Positions 2,087-42,800 of a DNA stretch of 53,995 bases are shown in pieces; the stretch's first letter is position 1; each line of letters begins with the position of its first letter. The DNA comes from Seison nebaliae (Eukaryota). The notes under the pieces are model-generated. The model was not told the origin of the DNA, did not search any database, and worked only from the letters and a program-made list of their open reading frames with translations. The stretch covers positions 62,001-115,995 of the forward strand of contig JALJEE010002086.1 in assembly GCA_023231475.1 (NCBI GenBank), read 5' to 3'. Made by a program: the position numbers and the translations under genes.

Positions 2087-3058
2087 TTAAGAAATGATAC
2101 AATTGTCATTTTTAGTTTTTCCTTTTAATCTTTGCGATTTGCCGTTTGACGGATTTGACGATCGATTGTCATTTAATTGATGAATATTGGATGATGATAA
2201 ATTACCATTTCCTACCATTCCATGATTAATATGTCGAGGATTTTGTTCACTAATCTTCACAGATTTACATTTATTTCGACTGTTGTTATTGTTGTTGTTG
2301 TTGTGGAAGATGGAAGAGGAATTAGTGGATTGCATTGTGGAGAGATTCTTTGCACTACTCGTTAGATCTTTAGAGAGGACGTCACTCTTTGAATTACGTG
2401 GAAGTGAAGTTGATGAGATATCTTCTCGATAACGACGTTGTGATCTATTGTTGATCGAATAAATATTCTCTAATTCATTTTCTTCATATGAATCATCACC
2501 GATTGTTGTTCCATTGAGATCGTTATTGTCATTATTGGAAAAAGGAGGGAATGGCATATTGAATGCGAATGATTGATTGTCACTTTGACCACGTAATCGA
2601 TTCGCTTTCTTCGATGATACAGAAGCTGATGATGCAGGTATTTGTGGTGGTGGTGGTGGTGGTGGCATCATTGGCATCTGATTATATGGTGGTGGTGGCC
2701 AACCATATCTCATTGACATTGGATGAGGAGCATAAGGATTTGTGGGTGGATATGGAGAATATGGATGAAGATGACTCGGATGCATCATATTTGGCGGTGC
2801 CATACCATAATGTTGATAATAATCATATTGAATATTTGGTGGAATTGATTGTGGCAATTGTTGATGATAATATGGAGGAACGTTACGTGAACTTTGCACC
2901 GATGAAGCATTGAAGAATGTGGGTGATATGGGATCTTGTAAACCACCATTCAACGATCTAGTTCTCGGCATTCGACCATTCGAATTATTATTATTATTAT
3001 TCACTTCATTATTCGTTGGAGTTTTCTGATGATGTTGTGTCGGTGGTTGACCTTGTCG

Positions 3059-3089
<31 letters not shown>

Positions 3090-14317: not shown

Positions 14318-17300
14318 TTATGGAAAAGGACGTGGTCGGGGAATGAGTCTCCGAGGAGGATTTGGTGGTCGTGGATTACGTTTATTTGACGGTTTACTGT
14401 CCGGCCATTGGATTGGTTCAATTGTTGGTTGATCTAAAAAAGAAGAAATAAAAAATTTTGTGAAAAATCATTCTAACGACGTTGGGGAGAATTTGGTGTG
14501 GTTGAAGGTAGAAGGTTGGAGGAGGAAGCGGAGGTAGGACTGGGAATGATGGAAGAGATTGAATAAATGTTAGAAGATGTTAGACCGATGTCACTTTCCT
14601 CAAAAGTCGTTAACGCATTATTATTTTGATTGTGTGATTGATTGTTTGAGGTGAGAACGATTTTTGGTAAGTCGAAATCGTTTTCTGATGATTTTGTGTT
14701 ATTGGAAGACTCGTCGATGTCCAAAGGATCGTCGTCCGATGAAATGATGTCAATCTCGTCAGTCGAATTTGATTCGTCATGACTTATTCTCGATCTCTTC
14801 TCATCGACTTCATCCTCATCCATCGACCGTTTATTCCCGGTCGTATTACCATCATCTGATTGAGGAATGATATTTAAAGGATTATTCGTTGTTGATTGAT
14901 CAACATTATCTTTTTCTTCTTTGTCTGGATGAAGAGTCTTGTTGAAATGTTCCAGCGCTTTATTTCGACAATTTAATATGATATATTCTTTCTGTAACGA
15001 TTCGCGTTGTTTCTGCTCCTGCTCGTAATTCTTTCGATAATGAAGACACAATTGAGCAGTTTTTGAAAATTTCATTTTGATATTTTCCAATTCTTTAAAC
15101 TTTTCCATATTTACTGCATTCGTTTCATTCAACTTCTCCGTCAAATCTTCCCATTTCGTTTCAGACTGATAAGATGAACATTCGATTTTGTAGATTCTTT
15201 CAATTTCCTTCAAATTCTTCTCATATCTCTCATTCCTTTTCATCAATTCCTGATAATTCTTATTGAGATGAATGGTCATTCGATTACATTCTTCATTCGA
15301 CCGTGACAATTCCTCATTCATTCTCAACAACTCGTCATTCCTCCTCGTTATTTCTTCATAATTCCTATTCAATTCGTTATAATCATTTTCTAATTGTGAA
15401 ATCTCTTCCTTGAAACTCTCTTCAATCGTCTCATTTTTTGATAATTCTCTTCTCAATTCTTCTTTCTCATCCTCTACACTCTGCAACACCTCTGTCAATG
15501 GAACTGTTTGTCCATTTTCGCTCGTCAACGACGAATTCCAATGTTCAATTTCCTTTTCCGCTATAGCAAGTCGAGAGATCAATCGGAAGTTTTGTCTAGT
15601 AACATTTTCATAATTCTCTTCCACTTCGATCTGTCTCAATAACATGGATAGACATTGTGTGATACCTTCTTTCTCACATCGAATTTCTTCCACTTTCTCA
15701 TCAATTTCTTTTTCATATTTATTTATCCCAATTATATTCATCTCTCCTCCTTCTCTTAGAGTGGTTAATTCTATAATTATTCCATCAATTCGTTTCGATA
15801 TTGTTTCTTGTGATCTCTTTAAATTTTCTCCTTCCAATCGAATCTTCTCCAATTCTCTTTCATATTCATTTTCTAGATGAACGACGGTTTGATTCAATTC
15901 CTTCTTCTCCAAAGTTAACGTCTCTAACGTTTTCTTCAATTCTTCCATGGTCATGTTATTGGTAAATAATAAATTATTCGATTTCGTCTCATTTTCTAAT
16001 AGAATTCGATTATCTTTCTTCATATTCTCCAATTGTTCTTTCAAATCTTCCACATCGTTCGACTGATTCGTCATCGTTTCATCGAAGTATTTCAGTTTGT
16101 CATCATTCGATGAGACATGAAAATCTTTCTCGAAATCGTCACCATTCTTCTCAATCAATTCACATTTCAATTCGTTGTTCAATTTAATGAAATCGGCCAA
16201 TTTGACATCTTTCTCCCTCGTCACTTCTCTCAGATCGTCCAATTCTTTTCTCAATTCAACACTCTCTTCATTCCATGAAACTAAATCTTTATCTTTCTCT
16301 CTTATCTGGAATGCAATCGAATCGTTCAACAATCGATAATCTTCTTCCAATTGTTTATTGAGATCAATTGACTGATCTAAATTCTTTTGAATTGTATCAT
16401 GTTTCTCTCGTAACATTCGATTCTCTTTCAGTAACAATTCATGTTGTTTTTTCACATCGATTAATTGTGTTTCAAATAATGAAACAGATTTCCTATTCGT
16501 TACATTACTTTTATATTTACTGCAAACGGACATATCACTCTCATCATTTTTACTTTCACGTTCATTCTCCATCTCTTCATTCCCATCAATAATGATTTGA
16601 TCATATTCATTATATTTCAGTTTAATCTCATTCAACTTCTTCAACATTCTCCTCGATTCATTCCTCTCATCTTCCACCTCTTTCTTCAACTCATCCATTG
16701 AAATTCTATTCATTTTCATTTGATCACTTAACGTCTGGTTGATGGAAGTGATCTCTATTAATTGTCTTTCCAATTGATCGACAGTTGTTGAATATTGTAA
16801 ATTTTCCATGTGATGGAATTGTTCTTTTTCTTTCATCATCATCTTCACATCTTCTATTTCTTTCCTTAATTTCAAATTATCTTCATCAGATGTCGATGAC
16901 AATTTACTCTCTATACTCTCCAACTTCATTATGAGAGATCGTTGTGAATGATATTGCTGCTCAATCATCATATCCCTATTTAATTGCATTTCATCATATT
17001 GACGACGATAATGTCCTAAAGATATTTGAGACTTTTCATATTCTTTTCTCAATTCACTCAATTCTTGTCGGTCATTCAAAATATCTTTCTCTATTTTTAT
17101 CTTCTCTTCTCTCAATTGCTTGACAGTTTCCAAAAAATTCGTTTCCTTCTCTCCGAACAAATTCCGTTCGATAATCAATTCATTAATCTCCTTTTCATGT
17201 GTCGCATTATCAATCTGTGCGGTATCGTAAAGTATCTTTATTTCATTCAATTCATTACGCAATTTACATTCATCTAATTTGTTCTGTTCCATTTCCATCA

Positions 17301-19308
17301 ATTTATCAGATGATATCAAATTCCTATCAATTATTGTCAATCTCTCCTCTAATTGACTCCAATGATCAGATTTCTCTCGTAGCTCCACCACTTCCTCCGA
17401 TGTCAATTTCCATCGTTTCCGATATTCTTCACTCTTTTCCTTCTCTTGATTTATTTGTACATGTTGACGGATCTTTAACATTTCCAACATCTCAACCTTC
17501 TTCTCACTATTCTCTAATTTATTCATGATAATTCCATTCTTCTCCTTCCATTCCATTACAGTCTTATCAACGGCCTCCTTCACTTCACTCGTATGATTGT
17601 CAGTCATTTCACGAATTACTCCGATTATTCGTCGATTCTGCGTTTGTAATTCTCGAATATTTTTGAAGTGAATGAATTGTTTCGTGATTTTCGATTGAGC
17701 ATTAAGCGATGATTGAAGGATTTGAGGCGAATTCTCTACATCCTCTTGTTGATCATTCAATAAATTCTGTATTTGTGACGACAAATCACCATTCAATTGT
17801 TCCACATTTTCCTTCTCCTTCAACACTTTTTTCAATTCACTTTCAACATTCTCTAATTTCTCCTGGACACATTTGAATTCTTTTTCAAAATCTTTATAAT
17901 TCTTTTCCGATTTCTCCAATTTCATCTTCATCTTATTATATTCCTCCTTCCTCTTCATCAACAATGGAGTTTTCTGATAATTATATTGTTGGAGATCCGT
18001 CAACATTCGTTCGGAAAGTCGTCGTTTATGTTGTTCTCCTTTCAATTCGAGGAGATTGTTCTGATATTGAGTGAGAATTTGTGTCAATCGCATTCCTTCC
18101 TTTAAACTCCCAAGAATATTATCTTCTTCATTGAATTGCATGGCAAGTGGAAATCGTTTCCTCACCTCCTTCACATCCAACAACTCACTTATTCTCAACT
18201 CATGACGTTTATTCGATTCACAAATTTTCAATGTCTTATTTGCCATCTCTAATTCGCATATCAATTCCTTATTTTCTTTCATTGTTATTTTCACCGATTC
18301 TTCCGACGAACGAATTGTTGATTGTAATTCATCCATTTTCTTCCAATAATTCTCTTCATTTTTCTTCAAATTATCATATTCTTCACTCCATTGATTCTTT
18401 AAATTCACCATTTCCTCCCTTTTCGTTCGTTGATAATCATTAAACAAATTAGTGATTCGTTCTAATTCTTTCTCTAATTTCTTCTCACTCTCCACCAAAT
18501 GTCGATTCTCCATTTCGTATCTCGTCTTTTCCAAAATTAGTTCACATTCAACATTTTTCCTTTCTCTCATTTGTCTATGACGATTATCTTCCATCGTAAC
18601 CAATCGTTGACATTTAAGATTCATTGTATCCAACTTCTTCGTCAATTCCATCGTTTTTGATAAAGATTCCGTCTCAATTTGCTGTCGATCCATTTTTACT
18701 TCATCCAATTCATTCATCCGTCTCATTAGTTCACTCCTCAATTGTTCGATATCAACCTCATAACCATAGCTTCGTCTATTTACCTCATCCAATTGTAATT
18801 TTTGCGTCATCGATTCTGCTAGTAAATTTGCCATTTTCTCATTCAAAAACATGATCTCTTTAGATTTCTCTTGATTACTCACACGTAATTCTTTAACCAC
18901 TCTCTCATATTGATAATTCGCTTCCACATATATCACATTCGATCTCCTTGACTTCTCTAATTCTTCATGGAAATTTTGTAACTCTTTTCTCGTTCTCTCC
19001 AAATCATAACTCAAAATTTTCTCCTTTTCTCTCAGATCTCTATTCTCTTCCGATGAAATTTTCAATCGTTTCTCTTCTTCTCTCAACATTTCCATTGTGC
19101 AATTATAATCTTTCTTAGCATTGTCGAATTCGGATTGCATCTCTTTCAACTTCCACTTCCATCCACAACGATCCTCTTCATTCTTGAAATTTAGTGATTT
19201 GATCTCATCTCTCAATTCTTGGTCTCTCGAAACAATTCTTTCTTTCAACCGCTCATCCATTTCCCTCCATTTCTCTTCATCAACAATCTGTTCTATTGGT
19301 GTCTCCAT
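14318..19308 (-). CDS. TPR: Nucleoprotein TPR/Megator (nuclear basket coiled-coil protein); exons 19308-14478 and 14433-14318
   Basis: About 1600 aa of coiled coil with Tpr-like blocks GMRLTQILTQY...KTPLLMKRKEEY and FIHFKNIRELQTQNRRIIGVIREM, followed by an acidic/Ser-rich tail. Likely start METPIEQIV at 19308. A 44-bp intron (14434-14477, gttaga...ttag) adds a Pro/Arg-rich last exon. Confidence 0.85.
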
Positions 19309-20349
19309 ATCACCAATTTCGAACAACTTAAATATTATTCATAAAATTAACTTATCCGAAGCTTAAAATTTCAAACAACAACTTTTAACTATCAATCAAT
19401 CAAAACGAGACTACTCTATACATGAATATTTCCCGCTTCAAAATAAATAACAATAACTTACCTTTATTTTTCATCCTTCTCATAAATATGAAATGAAAAT
19501 TTATCGTAAACACTTTAAAAATGATTCTAGTTAAAAATAGTGTTGATTCTGTGGGATTTTTTTTCAAATGCAGAGGCTTGGTGCGCACTTGACAGTAACG
19601 TCGAAAAAAGTAGAATGACTGAAAACATCTGAAATTGGAAGAACATTCTAACTTGTGGAATAAACATCTGCTGTCGCCTTAATTGACAATCGAAAAGCAC
19701 ATAGGTCCGACAATTGTTATTGTTTCATGTATCATAGTATCATTAAATTGTTAAAGTAGTGGAAGAAATAATTTTAATTCGCTTCACGTCAGAACTATGT
19801 TCAAGTGACTACTAATTCCCATATCGATTTTCCACCAGGGGTAGGTTATTCTTACTCTTTAAAATCAATCTGATAAGTATGGAAATCGACAAGGACGTTC
19901 GGAAATATATTGGCTAGAAGATAGTGTAAAAAAAATTATACATATTTGTAATTAATGTACATTTTCGACCAAGGTTTTTTTCCAAAACAATAAGCTTTTC
20001 TATCCCTAATTTTATCCGACACAAAAATAGTCTATTACTAATTGCTGGAAGAACACATTCTTAAATTCATCAATGAAAAAAAATGGAATCCAAAGAAAAA
20101 ATATGTGGATTAGAATCGTTGGATTCGGTTTTGGAAGAAGTTACGTGTTCGTTTTATTTCGAACATTCTTCATATCCAATATTACGACAATATCAATTAT
20201 GATGTATTATAATTTCCGAAATGTAATTTATAATTTTATTAGAAATTTTCGAGAGCGATTCAGCGAATTAAATTCTTCTTTATATTACAAAGCGACAACA
20301 CAATTAATAGCAATTTTTTTTCAGGAAATAACTTGCGAATTTGATTTCC

Positions 20350-21587
20350 TCTAGAAGGAAATCCACAATGAATTGAACGTAATGAGATGTGACATTATCA
20401 TTCGGACTAATGAATTTGCTTGGTGAATTTCGTTGAAAATCGATCTGAAAAAGAGTCTGATGACATATGTTCCTTATTAAATAGAAAGGATAAAAAATTT
20501 GTATTCCAAACTCAAATTCGTCATCGCAGACGAAATGAATGAACGTCAGGAGTCGATAAATTTTGGCCAATCAGCGAGGTTTCTTGAGTCGGAACCTGAA
20601 AATGAGGAATATGAAAACGTGTTTACCCCTACAATTGATGCTAGTCCTGTTGTTTCCATTCACGATTATTCAGAGAGCGATAAGGAGAACTATGATGATG
20701 ACTTCTAATTTGATGATGATGATGAAGTTTATACGACAGATGATGATGAATATGATGCAGATCACATCGTGAAAGAGAAGATCGAAAGAGAAGAATAGAT
20801 AGCGCCATCGATAATTTTCTTCCATGAAAAATTGTTTCTCCCATTTGAAAAATAAACAACATATTCGAAATATTGAAGACGTGGTTATTAAAAATCGATG
20901 AAGGAAGTTTCAATTTTCGAAATGGGCAAATCTTCTTCACGAGAAGTACATTGAACTACGAATGAAGAACGCCATAATTCATACAGATGGTCTTATCAGA
21001 ATCGCATATGAGATCAACGACAATTCCGAGAAGCCGATTGAGAATTTTAATGGATAAAATTATGCCTTATTCCCGCCTGCAATCAAAATCAGAAAACCTT
21101 ACTTTTGGTGGATGGTTGGAGAGGTTTTCGGAATACGGAGGAGTTTTTGAGTGGAGAATTCGGAAACTCCAACATACATGTTCGCCATATTCCCGATAAA
21201 ACAACTTATTTGGCGCAACCGCTTGATGTTTATGGTTTTCGTCTTTGGAAGACATTTATTTGGCGAATTACACAACATATTCTTCCTCGTAGAAATGATA
21301 TAAAAATCCATAACCGTCAAACAATAATTAAAATACAATCGTTAGTTTATCTCCAATTATCCGCCTGAAGTTTTAAAAAATTATTCCAAGTTGGCTGGAA
21401 AGTGACCTGATATATCGAAAGAGAGCCGGATGAAGAGAAACACCGAATAGTCGACGAAATCTACTTTAAATTTCGTATGGAAAATTGTTCGAAACATTCT
21501 AACACTACATCTTTCTTCAGGTGCGGCCGTTGTAATCTATTCTTGTGTTTCGGGTGTTTCTACGACGACCACCATTTGTGCACATAG
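20350..21587 (+). mobile_element. Decayed pogo-like (Tc1/mariner superfamily, DDE_1) transposase
   Basis: HTH-like segment ELRMKNAIIHTDGLIRIAYEIN, catalytic region VDGWRGF...HIPDKTTYLAQPLDVYGFR (37 aa between the two Asp) and a C-terminal Cys cluster CSKH...RCGRCNLFLCFGCF. Contains stops and frameshifts. No TIRs were found and the left boundary is approximate. Confidence 0.75.
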
Positions 21588-22483: not shown

Positions 22484-24084
22484 TTACGGATTGAAGTAAA
22501 CATGTTTTTGCAAATATCCATGGGCTTCCGTTATCTGGGAATACTGGACGTCGTGTAATGGAGATTGAGATCTGCAGACCATGTCCTTTTGAATCTGTAA
22601 TGAATAAAAATATATGTTAGACGATGATGATAAAGAAAATTTTATTAATTCTTATAGAAATAACATAATTTTTTCTAAAGAAAAAATAAGAATTATGTAA
22701 AAAAAAGTGATAAATTCGTTTCTTTTATTATTTTTCATTAAGTCAACTAATAATGAATTAGTAAAATTTTAACTAACTAATTTGGTGAGGCTGTCGAGTG
22801 TATTAGCGTGTGCATATTGGAAAAAGATTGTATAAAGTGATTCGATGAATCTGGATCCTGTATCTTCCATCCTATATGACACATGACCAGGTATCGTCGA
22901 ATAGAAGACGAAGAAGTCCAATCTTTTCGGAAGTTCGAGTGTAATATCCCTGGTGATATGTGTGTTCTTGGTGGGAGTATTGAGGGCAACAGCCAAATCC
23001 GATTTCAATTTAGCATACATCTCCTGTTCGTTCAGTCTCGTTTCTTCGGACTCGGCACCACGACAAGATTGAATGAAAAATAATTTGGGTTTGTTCAACA
23101 GAATTTGATTGAAATTATCGAAAATTTCCTTTAACTGATAAAGAATGATGAAAGTAAACAAATGAACGAAGGAATAACTCCCATGGGATATCCGTCACAG
23201 AAATAAATTTTATCGACATCCCCATGACTTAGAATACATACGATGAGAGCATCAAATTCATTTGCGTTTGATCGCTTAGCGAAATCTTTTAAACATTCTT
23301 CAGCGAACTGAAAGAGATGGAAAAATTGAGAAGAAGAATTAGATTAAACGTCGAGTGTGCCATTTTGGAGAACGAAGACATTAAAATTCAATTCTTGCCA
23401 TAAATGAATTAAACGATTGCGGTCAATATCGGAACCGATTCTATTGGAGAAAGTAGTGTTCTTATAAAAGACGTTGTTGATTATCAAAACATTTCCATGC
23501 GGTTCATTATACATTGAATAATAGCCCACGTTGTTCTCGTTTTCCATTTGATTTATTGATTTGTTGACGGTAGGAGATTGAATGTTCTGATTGAATGTCG
23601 AACTGACATATGAAGAATTCCTAACAATTCGACTGGAAGTAATAAACTCACATTGACATTCATCTATCGTCAATTTTGATCTGATATTATCATTCGATGA
23701 ATTAAAAACATCATTCGTCATTTTATACAAATTATATTTCAATTCAACAATTTGATCTGATTTCAACATGAATCCATTTAATTTGTGCAATTCATTCCGA
23801 AAATAATCCAGCACCGTCTTATTCTCGTTCAAATTAGTGTCCAACACATTGAGAAACTGAAAGAATATTTTCTTACTAAAATGTTTCCAGATATGTGTGT
23901 GAAGTGTCCGAATTGCATATGTCTCATTTTGAGAATTATCCACCTTAATTTTGGGAAGATATCGACGTGTCATCTTTTCAATCAACTTTTTTGGATTGTG
24001 CAATTCATTCAAGAGGACGAGTCTCGATCCTAGCCAGATGTCTAATAAATCCGAATGTTCATTATTTCCTTCTTCTTTCTTCAT
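22484..24084 (-). CDS. Caspase with long N-terminal prodomain (initiator type), ~443 aa; exons 24084-23350, 23307-23179, 23134-22778, 22594-22484
   Basis: p20 motifs GNVLIINN, RIGSDIDR, catalytic ILSHG and KPKLFFIQSCRG; p10 motifs DFFVFYSTIPGHVSYR, GSRFIESL and terminal KHVYFNP*. Three phase-0 introns of 42, 44 and 183 bp. Confidence 0.92.
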
Positions 24085-24569
24085 TCTTAATCTACCGATG
24101 TGACAAACCTAAATGTTCAATATCAATCAATTAAACTTAAATTTTTAAATGTTCTTCTTATTTCACATTCATGCATTTACTATCCTCATTAATTCATTCG
24201 ATTACAACATGTATTCCTTTTTCAAAATTTTAAATGAACAAAAAAACTATTGAAATATTTCTTAATTTTCATCATTTTTTCACACAATGGTTCTTTATGA
24301 GATTTCTATCAATTAGAAGCCTTACTTTCAAGCAACCACCTCATTTGACACCTCCCATGGCAAACGACTATTTTATTAATGTGATATTTCATACAACATT
24401 CATCGACAACGGAAATCTCAGTTCAAGTCATTCAAAATTTAAAAAAAATTTAAAAACTTTATACAAATCTTGCTGAGAGAAAGTTGATCTAATACCAATC
24501 AATTCCAAATTCAGAATAAATAATAGTTTCATATCAATAAATTAAGCACATAAATATAATATCCTAAAT

Positions 24570-25846
24570 TAGTGCTGTGAATATGATCCGTGAGTCCAAA
24601 GTGATAAGACTCGAGTCCTCCATACATTTTGGAAAAAAAATGCCTACACGAAAAAAAAAAATTTCTGAAGAAAGATGTAGTGTTAGAATGTTTCGAACAT
24701 TTTTCCATACGAAATTTAAAGTAGATTTCGTCGACTATTCGGTGTTTCTCTTCATCCGGCTCTCTTTCGATATATCTGGCCACTTTCCAGCCAATTTGGA
24801 ATAATTTTTTAAAACTTCAAGCGGATAATTGGTGATAAACTAACGATTGTATTTTAATTATTTTTTGACGGTTATGGATTTTTATATCATTTCTATGAGG
24901 ATGCAATTTGGAAAAGCTATAAGCCAGACTCATGCTTTGGCTCGAGTCCTCTCATGAATCGGAATCGATTCCTCTCTTTAGCATGGTCTTTAGCTTTAGA
25001 CAAAATTCGATATTTTTTAATTGCTCATAACTTTCTTCAAATAGCATTATATGCTTAAGGGAGCACACTGTTAGATAGCCCAGTTCAAGCTCTTACAATC
25101 TTTTCAAATAGTTCTAACTTCGACAAAAATAAATTTAAAAATCGTCGTCAAATAATCGACTAATTAACAAACTTCATTTTCCTCAATTTTTGAGATTCGA
25201 AAATCATATTTTAGGTTGAGAAATTTTAAAAATATCTAATTTTAAGTAAAATATTCGGGTTCAGCATGAAAAACTGATACAGAATATTAAAAAAAAAATT
25301 TTAAATATCCAATAATTACGTAATTATTGAGCATTGTTCGAAAAGGGGTTTTTTGCATTATCCAAGAAATTTTACTTGATTAAAAAATTTAAATTGCCCT
25401 ATCTTCTTCAGCATCATCGATAACCCAGAAATGCATATTCTTATTAAAATTGGTAACATACAACCATATTTTTTTTGCATTTTTTGTGCAAACCTTTAAA
25501 CGCTCAGCACGGTACCTAATTTGGAATCGATTTTTATAAAATGGATCGCAAATTGATTGCTTACTATTTTTTAACTTATGTTTAAAACTTCATGTCAATA
25601 ACGTCGATATTCTTCATTTTATGGATAAAAGTATAAGAAACATTTTTTAAGTTTTTCTATGGTCACTTAGAGAGGAATCGATTCCGATTCATGAGAGGAC
25701 TCGAGCCAAAGCATGAGTCTGGCTAATAGCTTGGCTCGAGCCTTGTATGTATATGACGCTTAGCATGTCTGGATTTTTTTTTTCCAAAATGTATGGAGGA
25801 CTCGAGTCTTATCACTTTGAATTCACAGATCATATTCACAGCACTA
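24570..25846. mobile_element. Non-autonomous hAT-like element with two nested inverted-repeat pairs
   Basis: ~70-bp TIRs tagtgctgtgaatatgatc...catacattttggaaaa (24570-24640 / ~25775-25846) and an inner IR pair at ~24916-24977 / ~25669-25732. TAG...CTA termini. Flanks atcctaaat (left) and atcctaat (right) fit an 8-bp TSD with a 1-nt indel. Confidence 0.8.
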
Positions 25847-26459
25847 ATCCTAATCTAGAAGAACAATCTTTTTTTTTTTAAATTGAAATACCCGTTGGTA
25901 TAAATTGAAAGTTTGGATTGAACTTCCTTACGATCAGTGGTAGGAGCCTACGCACGCACCATAATTATGGAATTCTGGAATTTAAAGATAATCTAATAAT
26001 AAAGTAGAATTTGGAAGATGAATCAAAAATCGCCCATATATTGTTAATCGATAGTTGGAACTTAATTCTAATTGAACAATATTTTAATCTAGATGTTGGA
26101 CAGTTTTTCATAATGTCACAATATTCGATTATGAGACTTGACATATCTAATAAATTAACGGGGATAAGAGAAGCGGCAAGAGAAGGATGTTGAGAAGGAA
26201 TATAGTAAGTTTGTTGAATTAAAGGAAATAATATGTGGCATTGAGAATCGGATTCATTTGTTTACGAATCCTTGAATATAATTCTTATTTTTCGTTATGA
26301 TTAACATAGTAATAATGTACACATAAGTGAGAATTGGATGAGGTGTAAATTGAAATTATAAAAAAATATATTAAAATAAGTTGTTGAGGAGTTTTGGTGA
26401 TTGTCAATTAAAGCGGATAACTTCCCATTCTTTGTTACTTCTACTACTATCATCATTGA

Positions 26460-28763
26460 ATGATGAATCCGAACATCTCCCTTTACAATAATTCGGTTTC
26501 CATCCAATTCTTCATTTCGCTCTTCACCTTCATGATTAGTGTGTCAATTTGCATAAATTTCCGAAATTGGAAAGATGTGATTTTGTCGAAGCTACCGAAA
26601 CGTGTCATTTCGACGAAGGATTCATTCAATATGTTCAAATAATTTACTGTTCCATACCAACCAGATTATTTGGAGCTGGTCTATTTGCTTCAGTTTCATT
26701 TTACTTTCTTTGAACAAAAAACTCGTTTTCCTTCAAAAGTTCCTCTGGCTACTTGTCCTCTTTCTCACTTTGGGTATTACTGCTGATTCATTGTTAATCC
26801 ATTTTGTATTCATCAATATCATCCTAAAACGAAATTTTAGTTTCTGTAAAAGTTTAACAGTCATCTCACAACTGTTGGGAATTAGTGAGAATGTTGCTGG
26901 TGTTACTTTTCTGGCTTTTGGCAATGGAGCAGCCGATGTATTTTCCGCCTCCATCGCCATCGTTAATAGTAAGGATGCTGATCCTAGTTTAGCGATTGGT
27001 TCACTATTTGGTGCTGGAATATTCGTGACTTCTGTGGTTTGTGGGGCAATAGCTATACCGAAACCGTTCCAATCGATGAAACGACCAATTCTGAGAGATA
27101 TCATCTTTTATCTCGTAACCGTTTTTTGGATCTTCAAATGTCTCTACATTCATCGTATTGATGTTATTGACATATCAAGTTTTATTCCAATTTTCTTTCC
27201 TTTCATTTCTTCTTCTTCTTCAAGTTTTCTTAATTCTTTACGTCATTTACATTGCTACCGTTATTACTGGTCATGTTATGTATAATAAAAGTAAAATGGG
27301 TTAGGAATCAATTTTATTATATCCATTCCGTAACTGACGTTTAGAGGACGCCATGAGAATATTGTCACATTCTCCATCCGAATGCTCATTAGTTTTGGTG
27401 AATAAGATGAAAATAGTACCAGTCAGTTACGATAATCCAGTTCTCCTTCTTTCTATCTTCATTAAATATCATTCCTTTCTCTCATAGACATATGTGTCGA
27501 CAGTGGGCGATGAAATGGGACTTGACGAACAGAAAATAATTAAACCACAGGCAAGAGAAGAAGAAGAATTGGATCGATTGAGATCAGATAAGAAGGAGAT
27601 TGTTCCGAAATCAATAAAAATTGAAGATCGATTAGAAGCAGAGAAAGTGATAACTCAAATGAATCTATCACAGTTATGGAGCGGTCTCTCCCCAATTCAC
27701 ATTCACGAATGGCGAGAAATGAATTTGTTGAATAAAATACTCGCTTGTGTTCAAGCTCCCATTACTTTAATGTTACATTTAACTGTGCCAGTGGTGGATA
27801 AGGGAGTGGAAAATAATAATTGGAATCGTTTAGTGAATGCTTTGCACGTTTTAACTTTTCCACAATTCGCATTATTTGCGACAAAAAGTTTCTTTTTCTT
27901 TCTCAATTTTTGTCGTTTAATTAATTTAAACATTTTAGACGCTTTTATTATGATTACTCCTCATTTGTCACTTTATGCATTCATCTTCATCTTAAGCACA
28001 ATTGTTATGTCACTTGTTCTTCTAACATCACAAAACAATTTCCCACCAGTCTATCATAATGTTCATCATTTCTTTTGATTGTTTCCTCCTAATCATCCTT
28101 TTATCAATCTCTTATGGACGACACATCTTTTTTCTTAGTTTTTCAGTTTTATTGGATTTGCTAGTTCAATTATTTGGATCTATATTGTGGCAAATGAAAT
28201 CGTCAATTGTCTCCAAGTTCCCGTTGAATTCTTTCATTTTTCAATCATATCTCATTCAGATGGTTGGATACGCATTCAATTTAAGTGACACAATTGTCGG
28301 GCTGACATTTTTAGCGTTGGGCAATAGTGTTGGAGGTTTGGTCGAATAGAATGTGAAGATGTAAAATTTGATTTTATTTCAGATTTCGTCGCAAATTATT
28401 TTAGTGCGAAAGCCGGTTATTCTCGAATGGCGATAAGTGCCGTTTATGGTGGACCATTATTCAGTTTTGTTTTCTAAAAAAGAATATTAATTCCAACATT
28501 AAAATATAGATATGTTGTTGGGATTGGGAATTCCGTTCGCTTACAAGTTCGCTCAACTAGGTACGAAGTCGATCTACTTTGTACCACATACAATCGAATA
28601 TATTTTGGTGGTGGCGCTGGCGCTCAATCTAATTATCGCAATGATTTATTTAACTTTAAACAAATTCTATTTCTCGAAGGCATATGGGTATTTTTCCATG
28701 GCATTCTATCTAGTCTTCCTCATAATTGCCATTTTAGCCGAATCAAATGTAATTAAATTTTAA
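26460..28763 (+). CDS. SLC8B1: Cation/Ca2+ exchanger, NCLX/SLC8B1 (CCX) family; 12 exons. Introns: 26496-26539, 26693-26739, 26793-26840, 27179-27224, 27300-27344, 27440-27487, 27888-27938, 28061-28138, 28217-28259, 28336-28382, 28464-28509
   Basis: Alpha-1 repeat SENVAGVTFLAFGNGAADVFS, alpha-2 repeat GLTFLALGNSVGDFVAN...GYSRMAISAVYGGPLFNMLLGLG, N-terminal Cys motif CVNLH...RCDFV...C...GFIQY...YC, plus TADSFFCKSL and LTVPVVD. Splicing the 11 listed introns gives one continuous frame. Confidence 0.92.
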
Positions 28764-28888
28764 AATAATTCGATTTCTATATAATTTTCGAATCCAATGA
28801 AAACTTTTCGAATTTTCACATTAAGATTGGAGAGCTTTCAACAATTACTTTTGAGAATAAAATGTTGAGGATTGATGATGGTTGAACA

Positions 28889-29052
28889 AATGATATCCGT
28901 ACATTCACCGTGTGCCTTAGTACGAATCAAATTCGAATTAGGATATTTAGACGAGTAAAATTCAAAGGATGATGCCATCGATTAAAAATTATTCATCTAC
29001 ATCCCGATATAACGAGCAGACCAAGGGCATCAGATGAACGCAGAATATCATT
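28889..29052 (-). ncRNA. mir-124: pre-miR-124 with an extra-long loop; mature 3p arm about 28919-28898
   Basis: Minus-strand UAAGGCACACGGUGAAUGUAC matches 17 of the first 18 nt of canonical miR-124 (UAAGGCACGCGGUGAAUGCC). A complementary 5' arm AAUGAUAUUCUGCGUUCAUCUGAUGCCCUUGGU at 29052-29020 forms a ~31-bp stem with G:U pairs and small bulges. Confidence 0.85.
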
Positions 29053-30399
29053 CATATTGTTTCATAATGTGAAGCATGAATTTATGGAATGAATGAATGA
29101 AGAAAAAATGATAAGAAGAAGTTGAAGGAAGATTGCGTTCCACTGAACATACGAGATGAGACAGATGATCTGTAAGGGAAATGATCTTTGAGAAAGAATT
29201 AGCACATATGAGAAAGTTTATTACTAAATGGAACGGTGGTAGATGAGGATTATTTTGGTGCATAACGGAGGAGACGAACTAGATAGTTTCCTTAACGAAT
29301 AGGAAAGATTAAGAAGGGAAATTGCATGTTCCATCTCTACTTGTTTATTTCTTCCTTTCTTTTCTGCTTTATTACTTCAATAATAATTGATTGGAGCATA
29401 GACAAGAAGTCGGTGAAGTTGAAGTAAGTGGATGTCAGATATAACGCCAGAATTTAATGTCAATAACTGACATGATACTGATATGACATGACATCCGTTC
29501 ATTGAATGAACGAGCTTTATTCACAAGTTCACCGTTGTCAGAGTCGAGTAGAAGGGGAAGTCGTTGATACGTACGAGAGAAATGAGAGAGAATGTTTCTC
29601 TGATATTTGAGCATGAAATGAATGAGCTCGAATTAGGAGACATCCATATTAACTAACATCATGGCTGATTTATTTTAAAATATCTTCTCCTTTGTTTCTT
29701 CCTCTCTATCTACTTACTTATCAATCAATCCTTTCCTTGTTACATATATTTCAATCCATATGTCTCACTCTTTCTCTCTTTCCCATCACCTCCCAAACAA
29801 TCTGATGACACTATCATTCTAATAATTATTTTTTCTTTCTTCTCATCCGGTTATATACCATCCGATCTCACCTAATAATATGACATAACTAAATTTGTAA
29901 ATAATAACACCAATCTTTAATCGACAAATCTTGGATATATCTTTTTAAATATGTTGTTATGTTTCCCTCCCGAATTACTTTCCCCCTCCAAAAAATGAAA
30001 ACTGAACAGAAAAACGAAGAGTTAAAACGTTTTTACTCATTTAACAATTTCCATCTGAGGCTTATTTGATCGAAGATTTTGCACTTTTTCAAACAAATAT
30101 AATTTTATTCGATAAAAGAATATTTTTTTTATTATACATCTAAATCCTTGTAGGGCAATTGATAAAGGAGAAATAAAAAATTACGATGTTGCTCGTTAAA
30201 AAGAAGTTCACGACATTTTGGTATATGATTTTTGATATTGTCTGGAACCAAATAAGCGATGGAGAATTCTATCAATGTTCTTGCGTTATACAATCCAGTA
30301 GGCTTCGGAACAAAATAATTTCGATAAAAGAAGAAAGAACAAAATGGCGCCGTATATGGTAGTAGATCGTTAAAAGATGCAATAGGAAATTCAAATGTT

Positions 30400-30633
30400 A
30401 AGTTAAGAATATTCGAAAAAAATCACTTTTTCCCATTTTTTTTTAGAAAATTCCAGAAATTTTGTTTTCGGCTGTCGATTATTTTTATTAATCCAAATTT
30501 AATGAAAATAACTTCATTAGATTTGGAAACTTGAAAATGTTTTTCATAGTGAAAATATCGACAGTCGAAAATAAAGTCTAATTTCTTGAAAAAAATGAAA
30601 ATAAAATGATTTCTTTCCGTATTTTTTGAACTA
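30400..30633. mobile_element. Degenerate inverted repeat, possibly an old MITE
   Basis: The core ttttcggctgtcgat (~30465-30479) mirrors atcgacagtcgaaaa (~30556-30570), with looser similarity extending outward. No TSD seen. Confidence 0.4.
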
Positions 30634-32999
30634 ATTTGAATAAAATAATATTTGTTTGAAAGAACAATATCTAAAATTTTTGAACTAGTAAAAACCTCTT
30701 AATTCCTCGTTTTTTTCTCCCTAAATCCGTTATACATTCTTTTGCCAATGTTTTAATGTTTGGTCTATTCGTTGTTGGAAGATCGTTTTGGAATTTTTTT
30801 CAAATTCTTCAAGTCAATCACTTCCATCTATTCGAGTATATAATAATAATAACTCATAATTCGTGATCGATTCAACTCTACGATAGGATATGATATGGTC
30901 GTGTCAAATCGATGGAAGAAAAGAGTATATGTTATGTGGACGATACATGGTATTATACAATTTGATGATTCGTTTATCTATAGTGGGCTAGGAACTGACG
31001 TAACTACGTATAGAAATCGAATTTTCACATTCTTATCTTCTCTTTGTTGCAGGACTGGAAAGAAGAAAAGATAGAACATAAGAATGTATTAGTTATACAT
31101 ACGATTAGGTTTATACGTAGAGAAAGTGGGAAGCAAAAGAAATAAAGAGTTTCTTTGCCCCTCCCTTAATACGGTACGAGTGAGTAACTTTTAAATTAAT
31201 TTTCATTAAAACTATATCATCGAATGGTATCATTATTCCATCTACTACTATCAGAAGAGAATGCGAATACGATTGTCAATTATCCATTATTCCGAAAGGA
31301 AGATAATGGGAAGAGGATAAGGAAAATTCTATTCTTATTTAGAAATAAGAAATTAGAAAACCTTTAAAGCTTTCTTCTCTTACCTGGAAACCATATCAAA
31401 TTCTTTATTAATTCATTTGTTTTATTCCTTCTGTCTCTCTCTCTCTCTGTCTTGTCTCATTCAATATCTACTTCATTGTTGACATTTACGTCATTTTCAA
31501 TATTGAATTCGCTGCCTCCTCAAATGGTTTGATCTCATAAAGATATATATCATGACCGACTGCCATTGGATCCGGTACGAATTGGAACAAATTCCAATAA
31601 CGTCATTTCTCTCCATTCTCTCTTGGAGGAGATGAACCATTTGCCTTAATGAGAAAGTATTCATTTATAATGTCAACTTATCTCATAATTAGATACGTTC
31701 GTTTTCAATCATCTTTCCAATGATTTCTCAAGAAGAATAAGGAAATTCCTGATTAATATTATAATAAAGATAATAAATGAAATGGAAGATTCTTCCAAAA
31801 AAATCTATTTATAAATGTTCTAGAACATCGACTTTCCGTGTTTCGTTTGTCAGTCGACGAATTTGAGTTGGTGGGAAGTAATGGAAATTTTAATGAAAAT
31901 GATAATACTGATAATGATAGGTTGAATATGTGAGAGTTTTTCTCTTGTGCCTTGCATGACAGTTGGAAGAATATGCAATTAATGAGGCATGTTACGTTCT
32001 GATAAATCAGTTATTCAGTTCCATTCGTTTCATTCAGTCTCTAATATTGATTGGAATTAAGAAGAGGGAATGCACAGATTAAATGAAAAGACAAAAAAGA
32101 AAAGAAGAAAAGAATGATAAAGAAAAAGAATATTAGAAGATGAAATGATAAAAAAATTCAACTAACCAATTTGAAGTTTGGTGATCGGTTTCTTTTCTTT
32201 TTTGAGGGGTGGATGGGGAATTTAATTAAATAAATCTTTTCGCAATTGCTGTCGGAGAAATTGAGTAGCAGCAAGTAGAGTCGTTGCATAATAACTGCAA
32301 ATCAAATTATTGATTTACATATTTCATGTAATTCGATCATTCATTCATCCATGTGCACATACGTATGTCGATTATAATATAATAAGATTGGATAAGATGA
32401 TGATGATGTTGTTGTTGTTGTATATGAGATTAGATGATGATAGTTATATCAGTGAAATTAAATAAAATAAGAAAGAAAAGAAGAATTGTTAAGTTGAAAG
32501 GAAGTAAGATTAACGAACGAATTTAACGATGAAGAAAAGTTGTCGAATGTCCACAAGTAGAAATGAATGAAATTAGATAATCTAAATGGATTCTCCTCCT
32601 TACATCGCCGATAGAGAACATACGACTTCCAGAAGAAGGATAGATAAATAGATAGATAGATTGATTGAATAATAAGAAAACTGATATTCATGTCGAGAGA
32701 ATAGAATCGACTTTTAATGAAATATAATATTATTTAATCGAATGAACAAATCATTTTAGCGCAGTCACATGTCTCTAACAACAATGTCTAATTCGTCTTC
32801 TGGGACAGATATTGTGCGAGCGTAAGAGAAATAATTATATCAATTATCAACATTATCATCTTCAGCAAATTCATTTTCACTCAATACACACATACACACA
32901 CAAGCACAAGAACACAGATAGCAACGATATGAAGATATCCAAATTTATTATCTCCTTTGTAACATAAAAGCGAAAGTAATTGAGCAAGAGAAGAATTCT

Positions 33000-34730
33000 A
33001 AATAAATCTCGAAACTAATATTGATATTGCTTCAGCACTTGTCACCAATTCCGTCGTTGTAACTTTCTCTATATTGCTCATAATTTCCGTCTTTTCATTT
33101 TACCCAAAAATAGATCGACAAGAAAAAAAATCAAATTAAATTATGCTTAGAAAAAATGATCTTCTCAATATTCAGTTTTTTATGCTTGATTCTATTACGT
33201 CAAACAAACAAAAGAAAATTCCTTAAAAAATCCAATTAATCGTTAACAAACCATTGATGGTTTTAACCATAACTGATGAATTCATTCCATTGTATAAGTT
33301 AATGAATTGAGCAAATTAAATAGTCAATACCTGAAATTAGAAGAAACGTTTTACCAACAATTACAGTCTGCAAATGATCGATGATATGGAAAGGAGTTCG
33401 ATACTGTTTAGAATTTATCGGAAATTCTTCCCAGAATTTGAACGACATCAAATATGGAATGAATTGTTCCAGTGTAGTTTCTTTGAAGAAATTACGTTCA
33501 ACATTTTCCTCATTCCAATTCATTGTCAATTGCCGACGTATTTCTTTATAATGTTTCGTGGAAATGATATTGATGGCAGAGTTGACTTTCTCAAAAATGT
33601 TGAACGAATAGAAACTTTTTTTTAGATGAAATTTCAATTAACAAATTAATTTATACGACTAACAAGATAAGAGCAAAGAAGATTTTCTGACGCTTCTCAT
33701 CTTGACAACATTCATTCGTTTGCAATTCATATCGTTTGATAAATTTGGAATAGAATCGTTGAGTTGATTGTTTGACATAAGTTGAGGTGGAGTGAAGTAG
33801 ATTAAATTGAATATAATAAGAATTATTGAATGAATTAATGTCGTTCTGTAGATCTACAAATAATTCATTATCGATCAAATGAAGAATTCGCGAGTTTCTG
33901 CCGTTTCTAACAAATTAATTGAGAGTCGAAAAGGAAAATTAATGAACATTTCAATATTACGATGGAATTGCTTCAACAGCGGATCCAATTCATTCAAAGG
34001 GAAATATGTCAGAGAGCGGTTGAGTTGTAACAGAGCATTTTCCAGTTCGATAATATAAAATTTCTTCTAAAAGTCAAATGTCAAATGACAACGGAAGAGG
34101 AAGAGAAATAACATTTTCCACTTGAATTGAATGACTTTGTTGAATTTTGTGCTCAATTTCATCATTCTCATCGAATTGTTCCGTTAGTAGTTGTTTGTCA
34201 AGATTCAAATAATAATTCCTGGTAAATGAAATGTTCGAATATCGACTGTTGTCCGATAAGAATCGTCGAATTATTTTTCTTCTCAAATAATAATAACTTC
34301 AAGTATAAGGGAGATGATCGAAGATAATGATTATCTGAAAACAAATTTGAATTTCCTTCAACAACAAATCTTAATGAATTCTAACAAATGAAGGTCTTGT
34401 CGATAGCTCCACTATTTACATTGTGTGGTAGGCAAAGGACATACGTCGACGTATTCACAGAAGGACAAGGAAGTGGATCCTGTTGTTTTGGTCGATCTTG
34501 GGAATTTTCTAAAAAATTCTATCAATCCAAATTTCATGAACACTGATGATCTTATATCTGGTTAAGCAAACTAGTAACTTTGACTAGCAAAATTAATTGC
34601 TCAATTGATATATCCATCAGACATATCAATTTCCATTTGAGTCAGATAATATTTTTGGGAGAACAATTCGTTCAATCCAACAGGAAATGGTACAGAGACG
34701 TCGCTAATTAGAAAGATATCAAATCATCGA
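33000..34730 (-). pseudogene. Decayed multi-exon gene of unknown family
   Basis: Two short GTT-AG introns (33907-33947 and 33615-33663) join three segments into one frame: ...KQFHRNIEINGRNSRILHLIDNELF...FALIFFYSFNIFEK.... Flanking parts carry in-frame stops and frameshifts. Boundaries are approximate. Confidence 0.45.
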
Positions 34731-35347
34731 ATTCTTGTGAATTATTTTTATGCAAAATCCAAAGTTCTAAACCATATACATATACCAAAATATATATACA
34801 TAGAGAATATTCAAATGTCAAATCAATTCACGATCAATTTCCTTTAAATATTTATTGATCAGTAACAGTAGTTCATATGTTATGTTGAACAGAAGCTTTA
34901 ATTTAATCGAATTGTTTGAACTTTCTTAATTTGTCTAATTAATTTTCAACATTAAACAACTTATGACAACAAAAAGATATTTTACAATAAAGAATTATAG
35001 GACACAATAATAATATTGACAAAAGAGTTACTACCTAAAAAAATGATACCTAATTTAGATTTTATTTTGACATCGGTAGGTAATAGAGAAATCCTGAAAT
35101 TTTTATTGAAAAATAATTTTTCATATTCAGCAAAGACTTAAAGAACAATATCACCGAAAGCATTTAAGATGGATGACAAAGTGATCACTATTAAATAGGT
35201 TTACAAACTGTAATAATAACCAGTTTTTAATAAAAAGAATTATGGGTGATGAAATCACTGGCTACCCTATTTTCAATCTTTCGTTAAAAATATTATTCAT
35301 TTACTCTTATACGTTTCTGAGTGGTTAACATATGGTATTCATATAAA

Positions 35348-37354
35348 TGTAACGGTCGTAAGATGAAATGAAAATATAGAATGTTCCCGTAATGTTACAA
35401 GATGTGACTCTCGAACATGATTGCGTCATGGCAATTAAACAAATAGGCGACGAAGCTCAACTGATTAATACTACTCGATCGAACATCAACTCACTCAAAT
35501 GTCAATCTTGTAATGTTTTATTTATGTGAGATTAATCAAAAACCGAGGTTGCTGCATTCGAAAAGTTACTATAAAAGCAGTCGTTGGATTGTTGATTCTC
35601 AGTCAATCGATATAGAGAATATCCTGATTTATATAATTCTTTTCCCTACTCATTTCCCTCGGGTTGCAGAAAGGAGTTAACCTTTACGTTTCAGTCAACC
35701 CTTTAATAAAGAAAAAGAACCATTTAACTTTTTTGCAAGGAACGGAGTAGTAAACCCATTTTGTCGAAAAAGAAATGAAGTTAACCCATTTCGTCTAAAA
35801 AAGAATGAAGTCAACCCATATAAATTTTTTTTTTTTTTTTTTATTATAACAAATCCCCTCGGGGCAAATTAAATAGAAAAAATGATAACTCCATAAATAA
35901 ACTATAAATTATAAAAAAAACTTCATTTTAGTTTAATTTATTAACTAATTAATGAAAAAAATTCCCCAAACTGGGATTTAAACTAATAAAAAAAATAAGT
36001 AGAGAAAATTATTTATTATTGGAAAGGCATAGTTAATAAGAACAACAATTTTATTCAACCATCGATGTTTAAAAATTCATTTGAAATGTACGAATCTGGT
36101 CCTCCATTTTTCGGAATACAATTTTATATTGCCGGAAAAGATACACATCCAAAGGTTGCAATACAGATGTTGTTCCTGCGGGAATTATTTCAATATCGAT
36201 CAATTGTGTTTGCTTATGACCGGACCAAGAGTCGATTACTAATAATTTTGTGCAATTATTTTTATAGGTCATAATACAATCTTCGACATATTTTTTAAAT
36301 AAAAAGGAAGTCGATTTGCCGGATTTTGTGGAGCATAAATAAATATTTGATGGCACTTTCAACGACTTCAATACTCTAGGTCCAAATTTGTCGGAACACT
36401 CCTGTAAAATGAGAAGCATTTTTGGAAAAACAGTTCCATTCATTGCGATCGTCGGCTGAAATGTGTATGAGTGTGTAGTTTTGTTGGATGATTCGATGGG
36501 AACAAAGGTTTTTTTTCTCCTTTGTTGCTTAAAGTACGACCACCGTGATTTTCATAATTCAATCCTGATTCGTCGGTGTTAATGATGATGTCATATTTTG
36601 ACATTAATTCGCAGATTTTTCTTCGAAAGTTATGTATTATCGTAGTATTTCGTTATTTTTTGGCTAACAAATCGATGAGTTTTCTTAAATCGATAGAGCC
36701 ATGAAGAAGAAGCACTGAAGAAATTAGTAATGTTTAATTTACTTGCTTCTTCTAAAGCAATTCTTCTTATGGTTTCGTCGTGCACCGATTGAAAATTTTC
36801 CCGCATTTCAACAATTCTACTCTCAACAATTTTGTCCAATTTCGAGAATTCATTTTCGGATTTGATATGGGTTCGACTATTGATAATATTAAAATATACA
36901 CTGTTATTTTTAAGTTTTTTAAATCGACGTCGAGCATAATATTCGATATTGAAATAATTTCCCCACGAATATTAAACATTAATTCTTCATTAAAAATAAA
37001 TTCGTAATAATTCAACAAACATCGTGGAAAAAATTTAATTCCTAGATAAGCTAAATTTTTAAACCGAAGAAAAAACGAAAAAAGTTTATTTTTGAAGTAC
37101 CAACCATTTAGGTATTAGGGACTGAGCTTAAACGGGAGCCGATTTTGATTGTACCAAAAATTTTGTAAATTAATGTTCTATAAGATGGTATAAAATTTTT
37201 TAATGTTTTCCATCTCTCACAAGTGAATGTTCCCTTGTCAGTTGAGCTTCGTCGCCTATTTGTTTAATTGTCATGACGCAATCTTGTTCGAGAGTCACAT
37301 CTTGTAACATTACGAGAACATTCTATATTTTGATTTCTTTTTATGATCGTTACA
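35348..37354 (-). mobile_element. pogo-like DNA transposon with 117-bp TIRs and an internally deleted transposase (~36060-36850)
   Basis: TIRs at 35348-35464 and 37238-37354 (tgtaacggtcg...gacgaagctcaactga). CENP-B-type HTH (VHDETIRRIALEEA...SASSSWLYRFKK) and DDE_1 motifs IINTDESG, THSYTFQP, LVIDSWSGH, IIPAGTTSVLQPLDVY. Frameshifts present. Confidence 0.9.
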
Positions 37355-37407
37355 TAGAGGAAGATAAGTTAATGTAATTTTGGTTTAAATGAATTAAAAG
37401 TTTGTTT

Positions 37408-37480
37408 TGGAGATGCCGGGTTTCGATTCCGGTACTTCGTACATGCAAAGCAAGCGATCTACCAATTGAGCTACATCCCC
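37408..37480 (-). tRNA. trnA-UGC: tRNA-Ala (anticodon TGC)
   Basis: GGGGATGTAGCTCAATTGGTAGATCGCTTGCTTTGCATGTACGAAGTACCGGAATCGAAACCCGGCATCTCCA: 73 nt, folds as a cloverleaf, has the G3:U70 Ala identity pair and a downstream TTTT Pol III terminator. Confidence 0.93.
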
Positions 37481-39850: not shown

Positions 39851-42800
39851 TTATTTTTGCATTTTCATACAACAAATCGTCAATCGGTATCGTAAATAAT
39901 AAAATTCTATTTTGATAATTTCGATAAGGTTCATGTAGAACCATTTATTGCAGAAAGCATAGATAATTGGATTAGCAACATTATTGATGAAATAGACATG
40001 ATAAAGGATGGGTGAATATCGAATCATTTTCAATATGATCATATAAACTGGTAAATAAGAAAGGAAGAAAGTAAATGCCACAATCGAAAGGACAATGGCC
40101 GCCTGTAAATTGGCATTTCTCGTCCGTTTTCGCTTCTTCCGATTTCGTCGAAAGAATTTCAAATAATTCTTTTTCGATCCCTCCTTTCTCGTTGGTAACG
40201 ACGACTCTCCACTCTCCACTTTAAATGTAGATGATAATTTTGTGGATGTGATTTCGTTTTTGGAGAAGGTTTGTATTGGAATTTTCTGAACTTCGATAGG
40301 TTTTTCGCTCACCGATTCGTCTACTGGTTCTACAGATATGTCGTTTGATTTTTCCTGTATACTTATCGGATTTGAATTGCTTCTCACAGAATTGAGTTCG
40401 AGTTGATTTGAAAATGATTCTGCTTTTTCTTTGTCACCTTTCAAATTATTGACCGATTGTGAGATGAGTAATGACGAGACATCGCTTTTATTCGATTTCT
40501 CACAATGAACGTCACGTTTGACCGATAATTGAATGAGACGTTCTTTCTGACCGAAAGTGGCGTATGGAAGAAGTAGAGGATTTTGACAGTGTTGTCTAGA
40601 AATCGGATAATCGAAATGACTGGAAATATAACCGATATGCTTCTCTCGAAAATGTAAACAATTCGTGCGATACGGACGATTATTTCCCAAATGATTGTTC
40701 ATTGTCAGTATGGTATTCGTAGCTGTTGTTATCATTTGTTTCTTATCAACTGAGTTCTTTTGTTGGGAAAAAAGAGAATTTTTGTTGTTTGCACAATAAT
40801 TTGAGGTAAGATTCTCTTCGAAACATTTCTCAGTTTTTTCATCATTTGTCGTTTGGTCGTTACTGTTGGATGATGAAATTGTTAAATTTGGTGGTAACGG
40901 TGCATTTGGAAATGAAATATTCTTATCTGATGGCAATTTCATTTCCTGATTATCGTTGTTATTTTGGTTAGAATAGATTTTAGACTTAACATCAAAATCA
41001 TGAACGTTGTCGACGGAATTCGTCAACTTTTTTTCAGAGACAACTGGCATCGCAGATGAATGTTGGGAATGACTACGGAAATGTTTTAGATTATCTCTCA
41101 CAATACGTTTAGAAGCTAATCTTTGTAGAAAGAAAGATCTTCTAATTTTCTGTTTATCATTTCTTTTCGATTGACCGTTCGACATATGGTTCGATGAATA
41201 TTTCTTCGATTTCTTTTGTTTCAATTTATTCTTCTTTCTCATTCGAAGTTGAACGGAAATATAGAGAATGACATATAATACGACCATAATACAAAAACAA
41301 AATCCGATAACTGACAAATAGAAGACTTGATACTTTGCTAAGAAATATCTGGAGATGAATCGAGTGGAGGCACGACAAGCGCCGGTTAATCGTCGTCGTT
41401 CGAAGTAATAGATTCGATAATAATTCGTTTCATAAATATCTAACAATTTCGGTTCATGTAACGTCGAATTACAACTGAGTGTTGACAATATTTGACGATA
41501 TAGCTGATAAGGTAAAATATCGGTGACAGTCAAGGGAATTTGCAAACGACTTCGAATATAATCGATTAATTCATTGAGATCATTCTGGAGATGCCATGGC
41601 AATTTGAGAATATTTGATTTATTCGTTTCATTAATGTTTTGGAGGAAGTTCGTTATTCGAAAATCATTCGTTCGAGAAAATAAATTTTGGAATAAAGACG
41701 TGTCATTCAATTGCTGGAAGATGTTCGATGACGAATCTTTCGACCAAAAATATTTATTATCCAACGCAAAATGTTGCGCGGGAATATCTTTACTGAATGT
41801 TTCCTTATCATGTAAATTGATGGAATCTATTTCGATTTTTGTATTTTGTCCGTTTCTTAAGATCGAATTCGAAAATGGAACTGGAGTGTTCAATTCATTT
41901 AAACCATCGAAGAATTGTGGGAATGATGGAATTGAGGACGAAGTTTTTAGTCTTAACTGATCCATTAAATATTTGGTTTGAATAAACTTCGCTTTCTGCA
42001 TTTCGACCGGTTGGTGGAAAATGTCATTGGAAGGGTCGGTTAAATTTATACATTTATCCATTTTCATCGTTGATGGTTTCTGATTGTTAATTGTTGGGGT
42101 AAGTATCATTGAGAAATTTTCGTTCATAAACAATTCATTCGAATTGAATGACAATGATGGTAAATTGGAAGAAGATGAAATGTTTTCCAGATTCGGTAAA
42201 TTCCCCAGATTGTTCGATGGGAATTTACTGAAAAATAAGTCGAAATTTGAAGAATTGAATTTAGTCAATGCGTCCTTTAAAGAATCATTATTTGGAAAGA
42301 ATAATCCATTATCAGCTTTTGGTAAATCACTTACTCCACTTTTCAAATAACTTTTCGTTCGAATTAAACGTTTCGGTTGAATGAGTAATTCGAACATTTC
42401 CTGCGTGGTCGAATAAGCGAGCATAGGAACTATGCCAGTCAATAATCCAGCTAGATATAGAATAATAATAATTTTTTTCGCTCTTTTATAATTGACGATG
42501 GTCTTCAATGGAAACACGACAGAGAAGAAGCGATCGAACGCAATGGCACTCATGAGAAAACATGAAATTGGAATATTGGAAGTGGATAGATATTGGAATA
42601 ACTTACAAATCTCGTCATGTTGAGTAAAGAAACTTAAGTATTCCATGTAAATATTGAGTGGCATCGAAACGATGCAAACGAAAAAATCAGCTATTGCCAA
42701 AACGAGAATGAAGAGTCCATAAGTTGAATTTAACTCACGTTTCGTTGCCAATAAAGATGCTTTTCTGTCAGTCGTCCCTTTCAGAACTCGTTCAATCCAA

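Follow-up and report, generated by a model that had tools for sequence, protein, structure and literature searches.

The giant microRNA hairpins of Drosophila mir-989, lepidopteran mir-12, and Daphnia let-7 and mir-278 are single lengthened loci that reach more than 1 kb, whereas in Seison nebaliae the whole microRNA set is moderately lengthened (Javad-zada et al. 2025, PMC12553114). Mutants of Drosophila mir-989 demonstrated that a structured extension and a flexible junction are both needed, and docking of Pasha on such a junction was proposed from these mutants, a proposal for which the authors state that direct evaluation is needed (PMC12553114). In S. nebaliae, hairpins of approximately 75-175 nt have been reported, with a mean of 117 nt and one hairpin above 200 nt (Herlyn et al. 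2025, PMC12256650). The limit on precursor length is regarded as an open question in the description of MirGeneDB 3.0 (PMC11701709).

Here we analyzed a 53,995-nt stretch of S. nebaliae DNA (hereafter, the window) containing a long minus-strand hairpin. Compared by eye, positions 29072-28867 of the minus strand agree at every nucleotide with the curated Mir-124 row of S. nebaliae, across star, loop, mature and 30-nt flanks. The reference row is the MirGeneDB 3.0 entry as given in Table S1B of Javad-zada et al. (PMC12553114), and consists of a 23-nt star, a 100-nt loop and a 23-nt mature within a 206-nt flanked hairpin; window and entry represent the same locus, and no difference was found between them. 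The hairpin is the miR-124 gene of S. nebaliae, real and already catalogued. With the curated boundaries, star, excised region and mature make up a 146-nt precursor, and the locus comprises the following features:

28897..28919, minus strand: mature miR-124 (3p arm, 23 nt), identical to the curated mature
29020..29042, minus strand: miR-124 star, the 23-nt 5p arm, with the same sequence as in the curated row and 19 pairs to the mature
28920..29019, minus strand: Dicer-excised region, 100 nt, identical to the curated loop
29043..29055, minus strand: 5' side of the basal stem, 13 nt above the predicted Drosha cut, pairing with 28898-28886
28886..28896, minus strand: 3' side of the basal stem in the predicted fold, 11 nt below the mature 3' end
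28877..28880, minus strand: CNNC motif read from the sequence, of putative function, whose start lies 17 nt past the 3' end of the mature

An earlier note on this DNA had proposed a minus-strand miR-124 produced from the 3p arm, which matches the curated row, and had predicted arm ends that lie at most 1 nt from the curated ones. Its precursor of about 140 nt was rightly long, and that length and its 22-nt mature become 146 nt and 23 nt in the curated entry. The note had taken the gene as undescribed, but the entry exists, and the gene, its arms, its expression and the species-wide occurrence of long precursors are all already in print. Taking the evidence below together, we conclude, with a probability of about 0.95, that the locus is the one miR-124 gene curated for S. 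nebaliae, encoding a 146-nt precursor that carries a 100-nt structured insert and is likely cut by ordinary Drosha/Pasha and Dicer.

The family table of Herlyn et al. scores one Mir-124 copy in S. nebaliae, a gene that in the earlier note's view standard pipelines could score as lost, and none in two acanthocephalans (PMC12256650). Under a curation rule that calls for both arms to be expressed with 2-nt offsets, Mir-124 expression is given there as 590.21 RPM in S. nebaliae, near the level in Brachionus plicatilis (700.31), with 929.38 RPM for Adineta vaga (PMC12256650). The expression of the S. nebaliae arms rests on this published table.

To place the S. nebaliae sequence within its family, we compared it with 44 Mir-124 rows among the 215 whole-word matches in the table of PMC12553114. 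The seed (positions 2-8) of the window sequence is shared by all 44 rows, and positions 10-18 of the Seison mature are unchanged with respect to the family. Position 9 is G in 42 of the rows compared and U in one Caenorhabditis briggsae paralogue, with A appearing only in Seison; against the human row, 17 of the first 18 nucleotides are equal by eye, the differences falling at position 9 and at positions 19-22. These comparisons bear out the intact seed, the A in place of G at position 9 and the altered 3' end previously noted from the sequence. The changes fall within positions 9-12 and 17-22, which are the normally variable ones (Herlyn et al., PMC12256650), and the weight that the note gave to a substituted mature was in this respect not right. 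Since the substitutions sit in variable positions and the seed is unchanged, target choice by Seison miR-124 is probably unchanged as well. The star matches that of B. plicatilis Mir-124 at 18 of 23 positions with one gap (by eye). Seison miR-124 therefore shares with the MIR-124 of other bilaterians its seed, positions 10-18, 3p origin and a recognisable star, and departs from them in the A at position 9 and in loop length: its 100-nt loop is the longest in the length-sorted table, compared with 56 nt in Gordionus, 39 and 38 nt in Brachionus and 17 nt in human. The family has been lost in both acanthocephalans (PMC12256650).

Positions 28870-29070 were folded on both strands and compared with 200 shuffles each. 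The minus strand forms one long predicted hairpin of -58.3 kcal/mol (z -5.74, 0/200 shuffles as good), whereas the plus strand is unremarkable (-35.7 kcal/mol, z 0.13, 109/200 shuffles as good). The predicted fold reproduces the arrangement first seen by inspection, with a mature-like arm starting at 28919 on the minus strand and 29052-29020 pairing with 28889-28921 over 31 bp, 5 of them G:U; a basal extension to 29055/28886 brings the pairing to 34 bp. Within it, the two 23-nt arms form a mature/star duplex of 19 pairs in which the A at mature position 9 pairs with U29032 of the star and position 10 is bulged, so that 2 nt overhang at the Dicer end and 3 nt, made up of 2 nt and one bulged base, at the Drosha end. 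The 13/11-nt basal stem corresponds to the usual spacing for Drosha, and the CNNC motif falls within its usual 16-18 nt. The 23-nt arms fall within the 20-27 nt expected of microRNAs, nineteen mature/star pairs is also the MirGeneDB database median, and of the motifs defined together with CNNC in MirGeneDB 3.0, neither the basal UG (at -14/-13), the apical UGUG nor CmR is present at its usual position in the miR-124 hairpin sequence (PMC11701709). The number of pairs, the 2-nt Dicer-end overhang and the basal stem of the predicted fold make canonical cropping and dicing of the S. nebaliae miR-124 precursor likely. Fold strength is not unique within the window, where 4 of the 2694 sampled 146-nt windows equal or surpass this hairpin, and a cruder scan by stem length placed it 21st among 2152 windows, so the case rests on fold and sequence combined. 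Five other strong hairpins emerged from these non-exhaustive de novo scans; none resembles a curated Seison entry by eye, and no cluster partner was thus seen.

The region between the arms, read initially as a loop spanning 28922-29019, is predicted to be a structured, paired extension occupying the curated 100-nt excised region, 28920-29019. Folded alone, this region does better than its shuffles (z -2.89, 6/500). Inside it, an inner stem (29004-28976/28941-28971) of about 25 pairs is predicted, broken by internal loops and with most pair probabilities between 0.89 and 1.0, while the junction next to the cut sites (29017-29005) is weakly paired, with pair probabilities of 0.27-0.46. On this predicted fold, Seison miR-124 has a structured extension in common with the giant hairpins, and its weakly paired junction may correspond to the unpaired patch that they carry close to where Dicer cuts (PMC12553114).

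The following course of processing would account for these features. Transcription of the pri-miRNA would start at a dedicated promoter located above 29055, where ORFs are sparse. Drosha would measure from the basal junction, using the 13/11-nt basal stem and the CNNC motif, so that the length of the insert would be ignored, and the docking site of Pasha would be the weakly paired junction immediately beyond the 3' end of the star, in place of a terminal loop; for Seison miR-124, this docking appears the most likely model. Measuring approximately 23 nt from the end left by cropping, Dicer would then drop the insert. As a member of a neuronal family that represses its targets through the seed, the 3p arm would load Argonaute and act through its unchanged seed, probably in neurons. 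Because both arms resemble those of Brachionus, where the insert is 39 nt, the Seison insert would have grown between the two ancestral arms, with no new partner arm recruited.

Two other readings concern the hairpin itself. The departure of position 9 and of the 3' end from 42 of the 44 Mir-124 rows compared might indicate a chance match or a decayed copy, with the true mir-124 located elsewhere. The curated mature, however, carries the same substitutions, one expressed copy is scored for the species, and the star is conserved with Brachionus; moreover, with up to 3 mismatches allowed, the window contains a single match to the first 18 nt of the mature arm, against 0.02 expected by chance, and we consider this reading close to negligible. 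The inner stem of about 25 predicted pairs could instead suggest that a long hairpin is diced stepwise, in hairpin-RNA or plant-type fashion, yielding extra small RNAs from the insert and miR-124 as its basal product. Such dicing appears very improbable, given that the stem is broken by internal loops, that a weakly paired junction lies between it and the duplex, and that the curated row lists only one mature and one star.

Length is a property of the entire Seison set. In Table S1B of PMC12553114, the inter-arm regions of all 29 curated Seison precursors range from 34 to 170 nt, and only three of them (170, 127 and 124 nt) exceed that of Mir-124. This survey of other loci agrees with the suggestion of the earlier note that processing in Seison tolerates extra-long precursors. 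The start of the excised region presents a recurrent mark: by hand count, 17 of the 29 regions start with U-U-G, and 22 of 29, including Mir-124 (C-U-G), have G as their third base. Evaluated on the first 27 rows against the trinucleotide background of the window, the mark is far from chance (p 5e-20). Among the rows listed for other species, U-U-G starts 1 of 15 regions in Neoechinorhynchus and none of 4 in Pomphorhynchus. The mark may be a form of a known apical motif, and it may be visible in the plots of the first four loop bases per species provided by MirGeneDB 3.0 (PMC11701709). The word "motif" is absent from the main text of Herlyn et al., which shows Mir-1 and makes no mention of Mir-124 (PMC12256650), and a literature search on Seison with Drosha and Dicer yielded nothing beyond PMC12256650 and PMC12553114.

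One possibility is that the processing machine of Seison has changed, through alteration of Pasha or Dicer or the gain of a cofactor, so that it recognizes a short sequence mark where the excised region starts; RNA structure alone would then be insufficient to explain the tolerance. Consistent with this, every curated Seison precursor is long while other lineages lengthen a few loci, and the U-U-G start is commoner in Seison (16/27) than in Brachionus (9/30; Fisher P = 0.035), in a post hoc test that used the first 27 Seison rows and the 30 of 45 Brachionus rows with the longest loops, paralogues included. Yet G is third in 22 of the 30 Brachionus regions, as commonly as in Seison (P = 0.77), indicating that the mark is older than the lengthening, and the Microprocessor of fly and even of human crops some long hairpins unaided (PMC12553114). 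A changed machine is doubtful, and the U-U-G start is best regarded as a modest lead. It is a rather unlikely proposition, too, that the Seison set lengthened because Microprocessor or Dicer finds the upper cut by a U/C-U-G mark beside a floppy junction, and not by the terminal loop, the mark itself being older and having been sharpened in Seison.

The two published tables differ in the families that they assign to Seison. Mir-8 is present and Mir-36 absent for S. nebaliae in the family table of PMC12256650, whereas the 29 curated rows of PMC12553114 (Table S1B) contain two Mir-36 and no Mir-8, a mismatch that probably reflects naming changes. The idea that Mir-36 had been scored as lost in Seison on account of its long loops was dropped, as its score is 0 in all 25 species (PMC12256650). 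Expression of Mir-36 is given for Adineta, Brachionus and Seison despite these scores (PMC12256650), and the zeros therefore look like a matter of naming.

Generic models fail to recover the miR-124 locus. At gathering score, Rfam returned a single match across the whole window, a tRNA, and no mir-124; nor was mir-124 matched within 28700-29250 at E-values of up to 10. At that threshold, six weak matches (five snoRNA models and mir-1 on the plus strand) were far below their gathering scores and were discarded as chance. The 100-nt insert would most simply explain the miss. The expectation that standard pipelines overlook this gene consequently stands for the generic Rfam model and fails for specialised annotation, in which the gene is scored as present (PMC12256650); the argument on pipelines has also been put forward by Javad-zada et al. 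(PMC12553114). The locus thus adds little as a discovery and provides a clean example of a curated, expressed and deeply conserved microRNA that a generic covariance model misses at a loop of 100 nt, which bears on claims of microRNA loss in unsequenced invertebrates. With every precursor long, Seison is also a good place to test the limit on precursor length, the miR-124 hairpin being one of 29 possible substrates.

On the opposite strand, the hairpin faces a protein-coding neighbor:

26463..28763, plus strand: NCLX (SLC8B1-like Na+/Ca2+ exchanger), convergent neighbor with short introns, assigned by Pfam Na_Ca_ex and by identity of the aligned exon stretches with SNEBB_001765
28856..28861, plus strand: candidate NCLX polyadenylation signal AATAAA, 24 nt from the hairpin base

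Of 313 matches to NCLX, SNEBB_001765 of S. nebaliae is the best (88%, with intron read-through), ahead of the following listed matches at 47-61%, and in a tblastn search with SNEBB_001765 the aligned NCLX exon stretches are identical. This identity assigns the window to S. nebaliae, an epibiotic seisonid and rotifer relative. The positions of the NCLX stop codon (28761-28763, plus strand) and of the AATAAA at 28856 imply that NCLX and miR-124 converge. This AATAAA is the only one on the plus strand within 28700-29500 and, judging from the sequence, is likely the NCLX polyadenylation signal, in which case NCLX transcripts probably terminate close to the start of the hairpin. No ORF of at least 100 aa was found between 28349 and 33299, and no minus-strand host gene was seen among the 25 ORFs of at least 55 aa listed for 28800-35400.

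Elsewhere in the window, the lowest minimum free energy of the 2694 sampled windows (-54.6 kcal/mol) belongs to an AT-rich branched hairpin at 30440-30595, which is enclosed by a 41-nt inverted repeat (30010-30050/30674-30714), has the appearance of a MITE-type element and bears no resemblance by eye to the curated Seison microRNAs. The Rfam tRNA match is located at 37408-37480 on the minus strand (39.6 bits, anticodon loop UGC, Ala); ARAGORN makes no tRNA call there, and the sequence appears to be a divergent tRNA or a pseudogene. Between 21284 and 24901, 237-nt inverted repeats (97%) surround caspase-like ORFs at 22769-23194 (Peptidase_C14) and 23344-24108, adjoined by a DDE_1 fragment (21051-21368) and with nested inverted repeats at 24568-25848, possibly representing a caspase gene carried within a DNA transposon. 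At 35347-37355, 118-nt inverted repeats (93%) flank a DDE_1 transposase in pieces (36069-36971), as in a pogo/Tc1-type element. Long single open frames encode a Prickle-like protein with PET and LIM domains (2087-5137), a 1621-aa protein with no Pfam match that reads like a coiled coil and which we take to be a Tpr-like candidate (14473-19338), a 7TM receptor with very long loops (39851-43078) and a DHHC palmitoyltransferase (30-956); unlike these, NCLX has many short introns.
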